IMG/VR virus record: IMGVR_UViG_3300037589_000202
Span: 1-31,245 of that record
DNA length: 31,245 nt
Strand: one strand, 5' to 3'
From: a virus
Taxonomy: Duplodnaviria; Caudoviricetes
Shown one piece after another: positions 11,080 to 23,139 of this stretch (the first letter of the stretch is position 1; every line of letters begins with the position of its first letter). The notes under the pieces were generated by a model that was not told where the DNA came from, did not search any database, and saw only the letters and a list, made by a program, of their open reading frames with translations. A program made the translations under genes and the position numbers.

Positions 11080-11550
11080 CTACTTTTGGCTTAAATCTAG
11101 CGTTACCGTGGTATTTGTTCCTGATTCCTCGAAACTGTAATCGGCCAAAGATGTTACAAAAGAGATTACAACCACTTTAAGTTGGTCGTATTCTGTTTCT
11201 AGCGATGTTTCAGACCTGCAAAGCTCAGTACTTAGTTGTTTTGTATCGCTTAAGGAGTGGAGATGAAAAAGTTTGCTTAAATCACTAGCCAGGCCCAAAG
11301 CTGCCGCTGGAGAATCAGCAATATCTTTTACAACCATGTGTAGCTTTATAACGGTGTCTGCTGTTTGTAATCCGTTCCCTTGGGTCTTCCAGGTTATAGG
11401 GTTGTCAAACTCAACGTACACCGCAGGAAATGAGTTTGCTTTAAGTTCCTGGTAACGCTGATACTGGGCGTTGTAAAAATCTACAGTTTTAACACTGTTC
11501 AAACCCTGTTTAATTCTGCTTTCAATAGCGTTGTAGTATTCTGTGTACAT
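11080..11550 (-). CDS. Tail terminator/completion protein (Mu gp37-like)
   Basis: KTVDFYNAQY...FPAVYVEF; last gene of the head-completion operon. Confidence 0.65.
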   Translation of the reverse strand: MYTEYYNAIESRIKQGLNSVKTVDFYNAQYQRYQELKANSFPAVYVEFDNPITWKTQGNGLQTADTVIKLHMVVKDIADSPAAALGLASDLSKLFHLHSLSDTKQLSTELCRSETSLETEYDQLKVVVISFVTSLADYSFEESGTNTTVTLDLSQK

Positions 11551-11551
11551 G

Positions 11552-12097
11552 TTATTTTTTTGCGAGCTTTCGCTCTATTTTTTTTATAATCTTTTTTTTG
11601 AGCGCCTCACTCTTTCCTATGAACTGTCTTTGTGGTATGGTTGCAGAAGCTTTTCCAAACACTGTTGTTTTGCCACCTTCATTATGAATCGATGCGTAAG
11701 GCTTGTCTGTAAAAACTCTGATTTTGTTTCCTTTCTTTACGTATTGGATGCTGTTTTCTAGCTCACTTCTCTTGCTGCTCAATATAGGAGTGTTTCTTGC
11801 TGTGGGGCTGTAGTTTGTTATTGGATTGCTTTTTCTTGCCTTATAATTCCTTTTAGCTCCCTTTCTTTTTGGGTGGTTATTTGGAGTTCTTGACTTGGCT
11901 CCATATTCAAAACCTGACCAAACCGATGAGGAGTCTCTTCTCTTTACGTCTTCCCATTTCTTTCCATCAAAACCTTGTTTTTCGAAGTTCTCTGTAAAAT
12001 GATTCACAGCTTCTGTACCAATGATATCGAGCATTTCTATCTTCACAAACCTTCCTATTCTGTTCAATTCCTTGTTTATCTCGTTAAAATCAGCCAT
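11552..12097 (-). CDS. Virion morphogenesis protein (Mu gpG / P2 S-like)
   Basis: ENFEKQG...KKW; LENSI; PYASIHNEGG; IPQRQFIG. Confidence 0.88.
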   Translation of the reverse strand: MADFNEINKELNRIGRFVKIEMLDIIGTEAVNHFTENFEKQGFDGKKWEDVKRRDSSSVWSGFEYGAKSRTPNNHPKRKGAKRNYKARKSNPITNYSPTARNTPILSSKRSELENSIQYVKKGNKIRVFTDKPYASIHNEGGKTTVFGKASATIPQRQFIGKSEALKKKIIKKIERKLAKK

Positions 12098-12114
12098 TTT
12101 TTATTTATTTGTAC

Positions 12115-12122
12115 TATATTTG
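12115..12122 (+). promoter_or_regulatory. Consensus -7 box TATATTTG(C), antisense to the late head operon
   Basis: Exact TAnnTTTG match in the intergenic gap with an AT-rich upstream; no clear -33 TTG. Confidence 0.6.
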
Positions 12123-12126
12123 CAAC

Positions 12127-12193
12127 GGATTCAGCTCTTAGGGAGCAGAACCAACCTCTTTCGGGATTGAGCGGTAATTCAATCCCTTTTTTT
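12127..12193 (+). ncRNA. Candidate ~65-nt structured small RNA (possible MuF-toxin antitoxin)
   Basis: Bounded by the -7 box and an intrinsic terminator; 5' hairpin GGATTCAGCTC-TTAGG-GAGCAGAACC; no ATG-initiated ORF. Confidence 0.5.
12163..12193 (+). terminator. Intrinsic terminator on the + strand, overlapping the MuF stop codon
   Basis: GGGATTGA-GCGGTAAT-TCAATCCC followed by T7; U-tract only in the + direction. Confidence 0.75.
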
Positions 12194-13372
12194 ATACTCT
12201 GCAATTTCAGAACCTTTTATTATAAATATTCTTTCAAAAGGATTCTTACCACTTTTTTTAATCTTTCCATTCAACTGTTCTTGTATTCTTTGAATTGAAA
12301 CTTCGGTATCAATTCTAAAAACTACAACTTTGCAATGCTGCTTGTTTTTTGCAGAATTATATCCATTATAACAAGAGTTTCCTTCAATTTTCTTTAGATC
12401 GCCTACCCGGCCATTTATTAAATATTCAGGATTTCTCCTTCCTGTATCTCCAAAACCTGTCTCAACATTTTCTGCGTGAGGTCTTATTTTTATCTCTACA
12501 TCGTCAAAATTATCAGCAATGAGTTTTGCTGCTTCAAAATTTTCTTGCAATGAATTTTGTTTGTTTGTCTTTTTGGTTTTATTCTGGTCTGCAAACGTAT
12601 GCACACTAATGCTGCTAGAACCTTTTTTGTAATCAACTCCAGGGTATGGTAAGTTTAAACTAAGCCTGTTCATTTCTCTCAAAGCAGTTTTTTTACCTTC
12701 CACACTCAAATTAGCTTCATAAGAGTTGTTGCTACCAAACAATCTTTCGCTCTTCCCAGCGTTGCCAATAATTCCATCTGGAAGCGGAGTTGTTTCTACT
12801 TCTCCTGAAGTAGGAACTTCGTCACTCTTTCGGACACGGCATTTACAGTTCCATCCATTTGGAGGCAAATGAGTGTCCCAAAAAGGATCGTTCATTGGTT
12901 TTATAATTCCATAGAACTGTTTATGTTCTGCTCTTTGTTCCGCACTTCGGCTTGGCAGGTATTCCAAGTTTGGGTAATCGGCCTGGCTCTGTTTAAAAGA
13001 GTTCCATTGCTTGGCACTTCTTGCTGTTCTGCTCGCAAAGTTGGATTCAGTTGCCAAGTGCCTTTCGTACAATGCTATTATCGCACTACGTTCTTCTTCG
13101 GTTTTTCCTTTTAGGTTTGCAGTATACTGGGCAGTTCTATATGCCGAAAACTTGGCAGCATCTTTTCGCAACTTATTTACTAGATTCCAATCCTTATCTC
13201 CGTATTTTGTCTTGTCAAATACCTGGTCTACCTTCTTGGTGATTGAGTTAAGCGAGTGGTTAAATAATTTACTACTAAGCTCGGTGTCTTCTAAAGAATC
13301 TATTTCGTCATATACTTTTTTAGGATCTTTAATATTGTTGGCCGATAGTCCAACAAAGTTACTCCATCTCAA
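12179..13372 (-). CDS. MuF (gpF/SPP1 gp7-like) minor head protein with C-terminal CdiA-like PD-(D/E)xK nuclease domain; frame open upstream to the portal slippery site
   Basis: MuF motif YPNLEY...RAEH...DPFWDTHLPPNGWNCKCRV; C-terminal NPEYLINGRVGDLK...AKNKQHCKVVVF; only a TTG start. Confidence 0.85.
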   Translation of the reverse strand: MRWSNFVGLSANNIKDPKKVYDEIDSLEDTELSSKLFNHSLNSITKKVDQVFDKTKYGDKDWNLVNKLRKDAAKFSAYRTAQYTANLKGKTEEERSAIIALYERHLATESNFASRTARSAKQWNSFKQSQADYPNLEYLPSRSAEQRAEHKQFYGIIKPMNDPFWDTHLPPNGWNCKCRVRKSDEVPTSGEVETTPLPDGIIGNAGKSERLFGSNNSYEANLSVEGKKTALREMNRLSLNLPYPGVDYKKGSSSISVHTFADQNKTKKTNKQNSLQENFEAAKLIADNFDDVEIKIRPHAENVETGFGDTGRRNPEYLINGRVGDLKKIEGNSCYNGYNSAKNKQHCKVVVFRIDTEVSIQRIQEQLNGKIKKSGKNPFERIFIIKGSEIAEYKKRD

Positions 13373-13436
13373 TTTCAGTTTGTCCCATGCTGTAGCATGA
13401 TTGTGGCCACAACCGTGGTATTTTTTGTCTATTATT

Positions 13437-13468
13437 GCCCCGAGATTTTCGGGGCGAGTTAAAAAAAA
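13437..13468 (-). other. Putative -1 programmed ribosomal frameshift signal (portal to MuF)
   Basis: T TTT TTT (13468-13462), spacer TAACTC, hairpin GCCCCGA-AAATC-TCGGGGC (13455-13437); -1 frame has no stop and is the MuF frame. Confidence 0.75.
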
Positions 13469-14622
13469 CCTTTACCAGCTTTAAGGTTTTGTGACGTATC
13501 TTGTGTCTCTTTTTTGGCAACAGGAATGCCAAAAGTATTTGTGATATATTCTTCTTCAATATAATAATGAGGTAACAATCCTTGAGTGATTGTCCAGAGC
13601 TGATTTACATCCACCGCCTCTTCAAATCTAAATTCATACCCCTGAAATGGATAACCCAGAGTTATTAATCTTGGAATTAAAACGGTGTTTAAATACCCTT
13701 CGATCCATTGTTTGTCACTTTTTGTTACTTTCACTCCTGTTCGCTCACCTACTTCTTCTTTGCTTCTGCTTCCACCAGAGCTTGAATCTCCTATTACGGC
13801 TCCGTTTATGATAAAGCTGACCTCTTGGTTACAAAGATTAATGAGATTGCTGTATACTTCGCCATTGCTTTTGGCGGATTCTACAAAGTTCAATTCTTCT
13901 TCATTGTCGACAACCGCATAAGAAGCAACGCCCATATTGATCATCATGTTTTCCATTCGATTAAGGCTCTCTTCGTCTTTCACGTTAGTTTTACCATATC
14001 TCAATGGCATGCCAAATATTTCGCAAAACTCGGACCAGGCGCTTTGAGCAAACCTTTTGTATAAAATGTGGGGTGCGGCCTTATTCAGAAGACCTAAATC
14101 TTTTTTCTCGCCCACTTCGAGCAACCAGGTGCTGTATTGCTTGTTTTCTCTGTAATAGATTCCTTTCTCGTCTCCTTGTCGCACGGTAAACATTCCCGTT
14201 TCTGGGACAACATGTTTGCGGTTCACTAGCATTATCTCGCTTATTTCTCCGTTTTCGTCTAGGTCTCCTATTTGTATAAGGGAGTGTCCTAAGAGCTTGG
14301 AGTCCATTGCATGCCCCAGGAACTCGAAGAACCAGGGTTTCTGAAGTAGCTTCGTCTTTTCGTTGTCAGCAATTCCATCTTGCGGGTTATAAATTGAAAA
14401 TTCGCTGCCCTGTACAGCCAGCTTGCGTTTGTCAAATTCAGCTGACAGCCGTGCGTCCAAAACTAGCTCATCGTACAAGTTGTAGAGCAACGTTCTTTTT
14501 GGTTGTTCTGGTTTCTCGGCCTGTTGCAAAGCGCTTCTCCACTGTTTTATATCCTTTCTGCTCCTCGCTGTGCTGGAAGCAATAATCTTGTCTAATATTT
14601 TATTTGGTCTTTTACCTGCCAT
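13459..14622 (-). CDS. Portal protein (Mu gp29/DUF935 family)
   Basis: WSEFCEIFGMPLRYGKT; CNQEVSFIING; GGSRSKEEVGE; between gp36-like and MuF. Confidence 0.9.
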   Translation of the reverse strand: MAGKRPNKILDKIIASSTARSRKDIKQWRSALQQAEKPEQPKRTLLYNLYDELVLDARLSAEFDKRKLAVQGSEFSIYNPQDGIADNEKTKLLQKPWFFEFLGHAMDSKLLGHSLIQIGDLDENGEISEIMLVNRKHVVPETGMFTVRQGDEKGIYYRENKQYSTWLLEVGEKKDLGLLNKAAPHILYKRFAQSAWSEFCEIFGMPLRYGKTNVKDEESLNRMENMMINMGVASYAVVDNEEELNFVESAKSNGEVYSNLINLCNQEVSFIINGAVIGDSSSGGSRSKEEVGERTGVKVTKSDKQWIEGYLNTVLIPRLITLGYPFQGYEFRFEEAVDVNQLWTITQGLLPHYYIEEEYITNTFGIPVAKKETQDTSQNLKAGKGFF

Positions 14623-14632
14623 TTTTTAGTAT

Positions 14633-15040
14633 TTAATAATAGTGATCTGTTTTTTGTATGCTACTTCCGTATCTAAGAGGTAATTGCTTGCCGTTCTCTT
14701 TCTTTGGCAATATGGGGTTAGTAAATCCATCCGCGATTTTTTCAAGCTCATTCATGACTTTGTTATAGCGGTCAACTCGCAATTGAGGAATGTTGTCAGG
14801 AGATACTTTTGCGTGCAGGTGATAGATCATAATGTCTCTCACAAATCCCAAAATCAAAACACTTTTGGTGGTTGCTGTAAGAATTGCGTTCATATCATAC
14901 CTAACATTTAAATATCCTGTTATTTCAGAAATCGCATCATTTTCCACTGAGTTCAAATTTAGGTCGTTTCCTTCAGTAATAACGCTCAAGGTTTCGTTAT
15001 CAATCATTTGTCGGATATAGTCTTTCGTAATAAAATTCAT
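14633..15040 (-). CDS. Head-tail adaptor (Mu gp36/DUF1320-like)
   Basis: AISEITGYLNVRYD; DIMIYHL; RYNKVMNELEKIADG. Confidence 0.88.
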   Translation of the reverse strand: MNFITKDYIRQMIDNETLSVITEGNDLNLNSVENDAISEITGYLNVRYDMNAILTATTKSVLILGFVRDIMIYHLHAKVSPDNIPQLRVDRYNKVMNELEKIADGFTNPILPKKENGKQLPLRYGSSIQKTDHYY

Positions 15041-15043
15041 AGT

Positions 15044-16555
15044 TTAATATTTTCGGCTTTCTCTTAAGCCTATTCTGTATGTGTGTTGTGAGCTTCTTGT
15101 AAATCTATCTAAATAGTCGAACGCTTCTTTGTCTGCATCTGGTGAATCATCAGGCCCCTTATAACCCGGCTCTAATCCTTTTAGCTGCGCAATCCCTTCT
15201 TTGGTGTCGTTGTGATTCTTCAGCTTCTGGCTATAGTAAATTCTTCCATTTTGGTACTGCGGAAGCATTTCCAACATTCGGTCATACTTCTTTTTGCGTG
15301 ACCTCTCGCTTTTTACAAGATTGAGCTTTATATCAAACTTTTTCTCAGTCTCATTTATCACTCTGTATATTTCATCGTTCCAGAACTGAGCCTCGAACCT
15401 AAAAGGAACACTAACGCTTGCTGGAAGATTCTTTTGGTAATCTGCAATCCATTCCAGGGCAACTCTTATTTTGCACCTTTTGACCAAACAGTCTAGCTGT
15501 ATTTTTCTGCCATCTTTGGTAAGCCCCCATACTTTTATAGCGTTAAAGTCACTTGTTTTAGATCCTGCATAAGCAACGTCCCATGTCCCAACTATTGCGA
15601 CAAAAGAGTCTAATCTTGGTGATTTGTCCCACTGAATCATTTCGTCAGTAAACACCTTACCTTCTACATGCGGGTCGTTATTGTATTCCGCATTAGCCTC
15701 TAGGCTTCCCATTATCTCAATTCTTTTGTGATAATAGTCTTTATCGTATTTTTCCTTCCATACCGGTTCTAAGGTTTCTGGATCAAAAGCGTTTTGACTT
15801 TGAACCTTCCATCCTTTGTTGTTGTCAACAATTAAATTAAAAATCATTTCTGGGGCAAATCCATTTTGAGCTAAAACAACTCTTTGTCGGGCTCCGTCCA
15901 TTGTTGGGATTACTCCTGACAAGAGCCATTTTGCATATTCTCGTTGTCTTTTTTGGTTTTTGATGGTCTCCTTTGTTTCCCAATCATCGCAAGCGATATA
16001 ATCTGGCCTACTGCCTCCAACTCTCAATCCTCTCGGGTCTTGTCCCATTCCCATAGATTTGGCAATAAACCCATTTTTGGTAATAAAAAATCCGTTTTCC
16101 CAGTGTCCGCTATTACGTTGGTCTCCAAAATCATGGATTAACCTGTCGTTGCCTTCAAATTGCAATTTCAAATCATCCAAGAGGATAGATGCTTTGTCTT
16201 CGTTTTGGCCAATTAACAACATGAACTCAATGTCATTGTTGATCCAAAGCCACAAAGGTATCGTAACATCCGCCACAACAGATTTAGCTAAACCACGACC
16301 CCACTTCAGCCAAATAGCAAGCTCCTTGTTCTTTTTTATCCTTTTGGCTGCTTTTGTGTGAAATGCAGGCGTCTTGGTGGTAGCAAAGTTTGGAAGGTAG
16401 TGACTGACGAAGAACTCATAATCTAAACGAGCCTTGTCAATTCTAGCCTGTTTGTCGCTTTTACTTTCATTAAAATTGACAACGGTTTGAGACCTCAAAA
16501 GCTTAACCCTTTGAGCCCATTCCTTTTTGGCGTTTCTATCTTTTACTGTTGCCAT
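15044..16555 (-). CDS. terL: Terminase large subunit
   Basis: Walker A-like WGRGLAKS, RGLRVGGSRPDYIACDD, RNase H-like WDVA...SDF, C-terminal DDSPDA. Confidence 0.92.
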   Translation of the reverse strand: MATVKDRNAKKEWAQRVKLLRSQTVVNFNESKSDKQARIDKARLDYEFFVSHYLPNFATTKTPAFHTKAAKRIKKNKELAIWLKWGRGLAKSVVADVTIPLWLWINNDIEFMLLIGQNEDKASILLDDLKLQFEGNDRLIHDFGDQRNSGHWENGFFITKNGFIAKSMGMGQDPRGLRVGGSRPDYIACDDWETKETIKNQKRQREYAKWLLSGVIPTMDGARQRVVLAQNGFAPEMIFNLIVDNNKGWKVQSQNAFDPETLEPVWKEKYDKDYYHKRIEIMGSLEANAEYNNDPHVEGKVFTDEMIQWDKSPRLDSFVAIVGTWDVAYAGSKTSDFNAIKVWGLTKDGRKIQLDCLVKRCKIRVALEWIADYQKNLPASVSVPFRFEAQFWNDEIYRVINETEKKFDIKLNLVKSERSRKKKYDRMLEMLPQYQNGRIYYSQKLKNHNDTKEGIAQLKGLEPGYKGPDDSPDADKEAFDYLDRFTRSSQHTYRIGLRESRKY

Positions 16556-16558
16556 AAT

Positions 16559-16999
16559 TTACACGTCTTTCTCGTTTGCTAAGTGATTAATAAATTCATC
16601 TGACAGCTCTAATAGGTCCATCATTGCGCTACCGTGGTTCTGTTGCACGTAGTCCATAAATTCAGTAAACACTTCGACATACACGTGCAAAGGGTTATTA
16701 GATAAAGCCTCTATCTCTTTTCTAATTGTTGATTTAGCATCACTGAGAGCCTTGTTTGGTACTCCGTTGTGATTCTCTACAATTTCCTCATTTATTGCTT
16801 TAAGCTGGGCGTATGAATCTTTTAACAAACTAGCCCTGGTGATGCTTTGTGTTTCCTTTTCTACATCCCATCCATATTTGGTTATCCATGCCGATAATGT
16901 TTTAGCAGTGCATGGAACTTTTTCTGCAATTTCCTTCCTGTTGAAGTTGGACTTCAAGTAGTAGCTTTTGGCTTTTTTTTGGCGTGCTGTATAATTCAT
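16559..16999 (-). CDS. terS: Terminase small subunit (HTH, DUF1804-like)
   Basis: RKEIAEKVPCTAKTLSAWITKYGW HTH, directly upstream of terL. Confidence 0.8.
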   Translation of the reverse strand: MNYTARQKKAKSYYLKSNFNRKEIAEKVPCTAKTLSAWITKYGWDVEKETQSITRASLLKDSYAQLKAINEEIVENHNGVPNKALSDAKSTIRKEIEALSNNPLHVYVEVFTEFMDYVQQNHGSAMMDLLELSDEFINHLANEKDV

Positions 17000-17161
17000 A
17001 TTGATACAAATTTGCGTAACAATTATGCGGAATAAAAAAACACTATCCTAGCTTGTAAAAATATGACACAATGTCAGTATAAAAATTATACAATCAAGGT
17101 TTTTCAGTTTTTATTTAAAATATTTCTGTCCCAAATTCGCAGTGTAGAAAGATACAAACAA
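17000..17161. promoter_or_regulatory. Divergent late promoter region
   Basis: CAAATTTG (17007-17014) and CAAATTCG (17132-17139) -7-like boxes flank a central dyad TGACA-CAA-TGTCA (17064-17076). Confidence 0.55.
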
Positions 17162-22612: not shown

Positions 22613-22924
22613 ATGAAAAAACCTACCCAAACACAAATTAAGCAATGGAAAGCCGAGCACGGTGAAATTCATCAAATTGATATACCACTCGATGATAAAG
22701 GCACAATTGCTACAGCTTACGTAAAGAAACCAGATCTTACAATAATAGCAGCGTCAGCAAAATATGCGGAAACCGACCCTATTAAATCGGGTTTGATAAT
22801 GCTTAACTCCTGTTGGATTGATGGAGATAAAGCCATTATGGAGAATGACGAAGCAAAACTTAGCGCCATTCGTGAGTTGGGGAAACTCTTTAAGGTGAGG
22901 GTTTCTACCATAAAAAAGCTGTAA
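22613..22924 (+). CDS. Tail assembly chaperone (G)
   Basis: QIKQWKAEHG; CWIDGD; between tube and tape measure; ends in the slippery A AAA AAG. Confidence 0.85.
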   Translation: MKKPTQTQIKQWKAEHGEIHQIDIPLDDKGTIATAYVKKPDLTIIAASAKYAETDPIKSGLIMLNSCWIDGDKAIMENDEAKLSAIRELGKLFKVRVSTIKKL

Positions 22925-23139
22925 GCTCTGGACTGATAGACACCGAAGACGGAGCCGATGATATACAAAAAGGTGCAGCCTTAATTCGTAGTGAGTTTTC
23001 AGTTGATCCCTACAAATTAAATGACAATGAATTTACTAAACTTTTGTGCGAAGCTTTATGGATAAAGCAATTTGAGCAAAAACAAATGGAGCAAGCGGTG
23101 CTTAAGGCACTAAGTGTAGCTTTTGGAAACAAAGAATAA
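22912..23139 (+). CDS. Tail assembly chaperone -1 frameshift extension (GT product, about 175 aa from 22613)
   Basis: A AAA AAG at 22912-22918; -1 frame open for 73 codons (AVSSGLIDTEDG...ALSVAFGNKE) to TAA 23137-23139, just before the tape measure ATG. Confidence 0.85.
   Translation, partial: KKAVSSGLIDTEDGADDIQKGAALIRSEFSVDPYKLNDNEFTKLLCEALWIKQFEQKQMEQAVLKALSVAFGNKE

Follow-up and report, generated by a model that had tools for sequence, protein, structure and literature searches.

The DNA analysed here (the window) is a stretch of 31,245 nucleotides (nt) from the IMG/VR virus record IMGVR_UViG_3300037589_000202 and represents a transposable Mu-like Bacteroidota provirus. On its minus strand lies an operon of head genes, in which the gene of the portal protein is directly followed by a frame encoding a MuF domain and a nuclease-fold tail (Table 1). 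The junction between these two genes, where the portal reading frame ends in a run of T residues followed by a GC-rich hairpin, is the subject of this work; it had been proposed, from the sequence alone, as a site of programmed −1 frameshifting that would fuse the portal to MuF.

Table 1. Features of the portal–MuF junction and its surroundings (positions in the window)
Feature	Position	Strand	Remarks
Head operon	11080..16999	-	TerS, TerL, adaptor (Mu gp36), portal, MuF, neck (Mu gpG/S), tail completion
Portal gene (Mu gp29/DUF935 type)	13459..14622	-	387 aa, C-terminal GFF-stop; PF06074 E 9e-71; phrog_113 portal
Slippery heptamer U UUU UUU	13462..13468	-	X XXY YYZ phase, abuts portal stop codon; in phase in relatives
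6-nt spacer	13456..13461	-	Contains portal UAA stop (13461-13459)
GC-rich hairpin, 7-bp stem, 5-nt loop	13437..13455	-	Predicted 3' frameshift stimulator; fold and covariation
−1 frame after slip	12179..13461	-	427 codons: linker with His/Cys motif, MuF domain, nuclease-fold tail
First near-cognate start (TTG) of MuF frame	13370..13372	-	Sole independent-start candidate found before the MuF core
MuF domain	12833..13054	-	PF04233 E 1.8e-9, residues 140-213 of the 430-codon frame
C-terminal CdiA_C restriction-endonuclease-fold domain	12212..12436	-	PF18451 E 3.9e-10; PE..D-x-K motif (alignment); structure model
Gap from MuF stop to neck gene	12098..12178	-	81 nt; too small for an immunity open reading frame

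On the minus strand the portal gene ends with GGT TTT TTT TAA, with eight T residues at 13468–13461. Contigs from two sequencing runs, which are not raw reads and are possibly the source of the window DNA, match positions 12100–14700 without any insertion or deletion (mean word depth 945 and 193) and contain T8, not T9. The hairpin had z scores of −3.6 in a 62-nt fold and −4.6 in a 42-nt fold, and none of 200 shuffled sequences was equally stable in either case. When both strands of the window were searched with a pattern derived from the site, the single match was the site's own hairpin, and 100 shuffled sequences gave no match. The −1 frame is open from 13471 to 12179 (430 codons from stop to stop), and its upstream stop is situated 10 nt 5' of the portal stop. 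A slip at the heptamer would give a predicted fusion of 387 + 427 = 814 amino acids (aa), with masses of 44 kDa for the portal and 93 kDa for the fusion. Just 5' of the site, at 13480–13500 (minus strand), a 121-nt fold contains a predicted 8-bp stem able to pair with the slippery T run.

Counted from the slip site, the first TTG of the MuF frame is codon 30, the MuF core starts at codon 126, and the first ATG is codon 189, past the core start. These data bear out the original prediction on sequence and fold: it had described the heptamer, the 6-nt spacer, the 7-bp GC-rich hairpin and the open −1 frame, the run of eight T residues, a MuF–nuclease frame with only a TTG start (in which both the MuF and the CdiA_C families were matched) and a fusion of about 814 aa.

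The structural model of the tail (pLDDT 89) was matched by Foldseek to a single structure, CdiA-CT 4g6v_A (E 1.4e-4, probability 1.0), and the alignment revealed a PE..D-x-K motif; a sequence search of the PDB with the −1 frame gave only a spurious match to ChlH. We therefore predict a CdiA-CT-like nuclease fold, for which enzymatic or toxic activity is likewise a prediction. MuF adjoins the portal in a temperate phage and carries a variable toxin-like C-terminal domain, as in MuF polymorphic toxins. According to the available parts of the papers on these toxins, a small downstream open reading frame (ORF) accompanies 89% of the MuF toxin genes (PMC5576092, PMC11699363). No small immunity ORF lies directly 3' of MuF in the 81-nt gap of the window, where the neck gene comes next, and in most of 24 loci checked the next ORF was neck-like or another long one, with a small ORF in few. 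Thus, the window protein resembles a MuF effector carrier, yet lacks the immunity ORF that belongs to MuF toxin–immunity pairs. The MuF tails of 68 relatives contained CdiA_C, LPD3, PBECR2, ART, glutamine deamidase or peptidase domains or none that was recognised, and many relatives that retain the frameshift signal have the tail swapped or absent. The suggestion that frameshifting sets the copy number of a toxin therefore stands only in part: the tail has the nuclease fold of CdiA-CT, but an immunity ORF is lacking in the gap and the tail is not constant among relatives. In one relative (L053:4131-5168) the MuF frame includes a Hint/intein-like domain, which suggests an auto-cleaving tail. 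A terminator-like stem with a T tail is located antisense to the MuF stop of the window (12163–12186, plus strand).

Conservation of the junction was assessed in relatives of the portal. In 107 of 120 listed portal homologues (38–100% identity), two phenylalanine residues (FF) occur within the last 30 residues, after an otherwise unalignable linker. Among 167 loci with DNA, the MuF frame was −1 relative to the portal in 153, +1 in five, 0 in one and fused in one, and was out of reach in the seven that were set aside, together with L036 and L111, in which the portal runs off the locus; a first viral scan with a single portal had given five loci, two of them (L004 and L005) without adjacent MuF. 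After dereplication at 80% identity, the −1 arrangement was found in 88 of 98 representatives, and 85 of these 88 carry a strict in-phase heptamer open in the −1 frame. In phase, 89 of 97 portal ends had a heptamer combined with a hairpin (cut-off ≤ −8 kcal/mol). The two other phases gave 11 and 4 of 97, internal windows of the portal loci 6 of 582 and the ends of other genes 7 of 521. In three loci (L037, L090 and L198), the hairpin and a site-like sequence are still present, but the downstream frame is broken or offset, probably due to decay or error. At the 3' end of the portal gene of L088 (3001-4152), a near-canonical A GTT TTT precedes the stop with the hairpin retained at 6 nt, possibly allowing single-tRNA slippage.

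A second set of loci, built around the MuF motif (six loci lacking a portal were set aside), added 55 new representatives, with 26–38% identity to the window portal where measured: 40 with MuF in the −1 frame, nine fused and six other. A strict heptamer is present in 38 of these 40, and the remaining two have an ATG at the junction; the heptamer types include A AAA AAG, A AAA AAA, G GGA AAG, A AAT TTT and C CCT TTT. In addition, among 401 evenly drawn Bacteroidota genomes, all six with a close portal (one being the already known centre genome) carry an in-phase heptamer open in −1. The site is also found in the cultured phages hankyphage p00, TCUEAP3, Peternella_1 and fF4, of which the last two have A-rich heptamers and weak stems. 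The signal is not universal among Mu-type portals: it was lacking in the distant Bacteroidota portals L265–L273 (mostly without MuF in the locus) and in Alteromonadaceae phage B23, where MuF has its own ATG overlapping the stop. Two loci of a distant lineage with very weak portal similarity, L282 and L283, have A AAA AAG just 5' of the upstream stop and a MuF frame open in −1.

The nucleotide sequence of the site appears to be selected beyond the residues that it encodes, since 73 of 74 terminal FF pairs are encoded as T TTT TTY, although TTC makes up 37% (541/1475) of the phenylalanine codons in the portal body. The heptamer itself turns over among canonical slippery types across relatives. 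A G-C pair opens the stem 7 nt past the heptamer in 75 of 85 relatives, and in some lineages whole stem arms have been exchanged (GCCCC..GGGGC versus GGGGC..GCCCC). In an alignment-free test, Watson–Crick pairing with the own 5' arm was found in 60 of 85 cases, compared with 208 of 6582 swaps (3%). The covariation score, computed on 31 hand-picked junctions, was 0.44 versus 0.15 and exceeded 500 of 500 shuffles and all slid controls; two measures counting pairs or types on the same junctions were non-significant (77 and 65 of 500). The RNAalifold consensus on a MAFFT alignment was weak (−0.8 kcal/mol, four pairs, all covarying), due to the variable loop lengths.

The presence of the heptamer is also related to the start codon of MuF. 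In a comparison of 139 non-fused representatives (L004 was left out), an own MuF ATG close to the portal stop was seen in 9 of the 124 carrying the heptamer and in 11 of the 15 lacking it (p 3e-8, uncorrected for kinship); the two features are nearly mutually exclusive. In several relatives with separate genes (L168/L248, L169, L202, L229, L211, L220 and L115), the portal ends in a short "LY...H-stop" tail, mostly with Cys/His, that resembles the first part of the −1 frame in relatives with the frameshift signal, and MuF has its own ATG there. This Cys/His motif may bind metal.

Taken together, the portal end very probably carries a programmed −1 ribosomal frameshift signal that joins the portal to MuF, as judged from comparative sequence data. 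The site combines an in-phase heptamer, a 3' structure within 5–9 nt, an open and conserved −1 coding frame and selection beyond the need of the protein. The proposed fusion of portal to MuF thus gains comparative support from conservation, covariation, codon selection and the exclusion of ATG, and the heptamer with its hairpin, predicted to recur in homologues, is indeed family-wide, with a stem that covaries. The shift would most likely proceed by tandem −1 slippage of two Phe-tRNAs, with the ribosome held by the hairpin and perhaps by the adjacent stop, so that one mRNA would yield both the 387-aa portal and the 814-aa portal–MuF–nuclease fusion. The portal ring is a dodecamer. Fusion subunits would probably co-assemble in this ring and thereby bring MuF into the head, so that it would not have to bind the portal in a step of its own as is known for SPP1 gp7, and the shift rate would set the number of MuF copies per ring. 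More tentatively, the variable tail might be delivered with the DNA as an early effector.

Several observations weigh against this interpretation. Of the 495 strict heptamers on both strands of the window, two unrelated ones and the mirror image of the site itself rank above it by energy. Energy alone does not convincingly set the site apart within the window, and the case for it stands on conservation. The counts across relatives are not phylogenetically independent, although heptamer types are scattered over the portal tree, and by the energy cut-off the hairpin is weak or absent in 9 of the 40 −1 representatives of the second set. Portal and MuF are separate genes in some relatives, including the cultured pippi8-1 and FPSV-S1 as well as B23, so the fusion is unnecessary in some lineages. 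The TTG at 13372 has an A-rich context and could start MuF independently. In the proteomics of hankyphage particles, the only direct protein-level data found, MuF (3 peptides) and portal (20 peptides) were in the 250–85 kDa band, where a fusion of the predicted 108 kDa is expected; small proteins such as Gam and the adaptor are listed there too in the available part of the source (PMC12135933 S6 Table), so the band is compatible with fused and with free MuF alike.

If MuF were translated separately, from the TTG or from some other start used by re-initiation or coupling, the hairpin might regulate initiation or mRNA stability. The A-rich bases upstream of the TTG, the minority of heptamer loci with a nearby ATG and the separate-gene relatives would agree with this, whereas the in-phase codon-selected heptamer, its turnover among slippery types and the constant distance of the stem would be left unexplained. 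Moreover, the position of the first ATG is scattered (10th–90th percentile, codons 13–162), 15 of 85 cases have no ATG or one that follows the start of the MuF core, and a loosely defined Cys/His motif lies 5' of the first ATG in 45 of the 53 loci having it; we consider separate translation quite unlikely. The same fusion could also arise if transcriptional slippage on the T run added one U to part of the mRNAs. The T8 of the window is longer than the run in most relatives, but A/T runs of at least 8 are present in only 2 of 85 sites (6 in 63, and 4 or fewer in 15) and non-homopolymeric heptamers are common, which makes polymerase slippage very unlikely. Signals for ribosomal slippage, in contrast to those for slippage of the polymerase, are expected to keep a strict codon phase and to have a stem downstream at a distance that suits the ribosome.

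The GC-rich stem just past a stop codon in an AT-rich genome could, on its face, act as an intrinsic terminator or direct RNA processing behind the portal gene. On the coding strand, however, the U run lies 5' and not 3' of the stem, a terminator scan did not list this hairpin on either strand, no Rfam match was found at E ≤ 1, and several relatives have a stem that overlaps the stop or lies 5' of it but retains its distance to the heptamer. Such a role is thus extremely improbable, and the intrinsic terminator, with no U tract after the stem, in the wrong orientation and unlisted by the scan, was rejected. Homopolymer runs are error-prone and genuine in-frame fusions exist, which could point to a sequencing or assembly error or to a decayed in-frame fusion gene; with the −1 offset recurring in the 153 loci from unrelated assemblies, including cultured phages, the agreement of the two contig sets (possibly the source) and both frames intact in the window, the probability of this is negligible.

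Among the longer homologues, nine natural single-frame portal–MuF proteins were found (P0121–P0129, judged from protein only), a further point in favour of the predicted fusion; most have FF, KKK or GK at the junction by eye, and one of them, P0127, aligns to the window frame through the tail region. DNA for P0128 and P0125 (viral) and P0127 (metagenome) was searched for and not found. All nine dereplicated fusions with DNA have an in-phase strict heptamer in the linker, with a −1 frame that stops within about 20 codons, and L255 is a tenth fused case of the same pattern. In Porphyromonas gingivalis prophages (L165, L170–L172), portal and MuF form a single frame of 853–854 codons that retains T TTT TTC, 6 nt and a GC hairpin, with the −1 stop after 19 codons. 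The fused L217 has G GGA AAG 5' of a −26 kcal/mol stem, and the other cases have A AAA AAG, mostly with weak stems; the structure next to the heptamer is strong in L165, L217 and L255, and the seven others have weak ones of −5 to −10 kcal/mol. A AAA AAG occurs seven times in 1312 linker codons versus four times in 5444 elsewhere (p 0.0017; p 0.03 among KK pairs), and the per-gene chance probabilities multiply to 8e-5, two of the nine being individually uninformative. The fused forms occupy about seven separate places on the portal tree.

These data suggest that the fused genes are an inverted, dnaX-like form, in which a −1 shift would give the short portal. From their sequences, we somewhat favour the view that the heptamers of fused genes are active; alternatively, they could be remnants or simply reflect lysine-rich linkers. 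The keeping of heptamers in in-frame fusions implies that selection likely acts on both the short and the long portal; accordingly, the fusion need not be a rare product, and the shift rate, if the heptamers are active, may be substantial and not a few percent. Considering also the variability of the tail, frameshifting seems to be a means of obtaining two portal forms and of tethering MuF with any tail. We regard as evenly balanced the broader proposition of a portal ring deliberately mixed from short and MuF-effector-bearing subunits through a two-way switch, in which the −1 shift gives the long form in most lineages and the short one in several independent lineages with a fused gene, and the ribosome sets the number of effector copies packaged at the DNA channel and ejected through it.

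Frameshifts of the −1 type in phage morphogenesis genes are already known, and the portal would be new as their target. The lambda G/GT tail-assembly-chaperone and the A2 and PSA capsid/tail frameshifts likewise use a slippery site close to where a morphogenesis gene ends, and give short and C-terminally extended products at a set ratio (Atkins 2016, PMC5009743, as far as available). Unlike these systems, the one predicted in the window acts on the portal, would extend it by all of the neighbouring gene (MuF with its variable enzyme tail), and retains a strong hairpin that covaries. The word "portal" is absent from the first two-thirds of that review. According to the same portion, dnaX gives short and long subunit forms (tau/gamma) from one gene, and at high efficiency a small change can suffice to swap the roles of its frames, a situation similar to that of the in-frame portal–MuF fusions that retain the slippery site. 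However, dnaX is a host replication gene, whereas here a virion ring is concerned and both directions recur within one phage family.

As in SPP1 gp7, Mu gpF and the MuF polymorphic toxins, the muf gene of the window is directly 3' of the portal gene and encodes a variable C-terminal enzyme domain; in the available parts of these sources, the MuF of SPP1 and Mu is described as a separate translation product that binds the portal non-covalently (PMC5576092, PMC11699363), with 1–2 copies of gp7 per capsid (Jamet 2017, PMC5576092). The word "frameshift" does not occur in the main texts of these two papers, as available. Single-chain fusions of portal/MuF with PBECR effectors have been described and proposed to be packaged and injected (Iyer 2017, PMC5512222); in the available text these are fixed gene fusions with no mention of recoding, whereas the fusion predicted here is conditional. 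If our interpretation is true, some of the "fixed" portal–MuF fusions also make a short portal.

The impression behind the original prediction that the portal/MuF junction is an unfamiliar place for frameshifting agrees with our full-text literature searches, which found no description of a portal–MuF frameshift, although subscription journals and one supplement file of PMC3711429 could bear on the novelty. In the available parts of PMC5576092, PMC11699363, PMC8008677, PMC10367356, PMC5512222, PMC12135933, PMC8776804, PMC10627814, PMC5009743, PMC3711429 and PMC10885494, frameshifting is not linked to the portal, and there was no match in two of the three supplement files of PMC3711429 or in the one of PMC10885494. 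PRFect, in the part available, names MuF-like genes among predicted shifts solely with regard to VIP2 fusions.

Portals are usually regarded as homo-dodecamers encoded by a single gene, with MuF as a distinct minor component. If the proposed frameshift operates, a widespread group of phages, including hankyphage p00, Winoviridae (Peternella_1, fF4), Elizabethkingia phage TCUEAP3 and Porphyromonas prophages, makes portals of two lengths and loads MuF with an interchangeable enzyme tail covalently. This would provide a concrete answer to how MuF effectors enter the head and at which copy number, and the MuF start codons in these records would likely be misassigned. The group would also offer a natural series of bacterial −1 signals of both polarities for studies of translation in Bacteroidota.

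Elsewhere in the window, on the plus strand at 22613–23139, a 103-aa gene that precedes the tape-measure gene and received no name in profile searches ends with an in-phase A AAA AAG (22912–22918), from which the −1 frame runs to a stop just 5' of the tape-measure ATG; this is likely a classic tail-chaperone frameshift of the G/GT type, and a second such site in the same phage also speaks for frameshifting at the portal end. The head-packaging operon on the minus strand and the operon for protease, capsid and tail on the plus strand diverge from 16999–17063, a layout common to hankyphage, fF4 and the Porphyromonas prophages.

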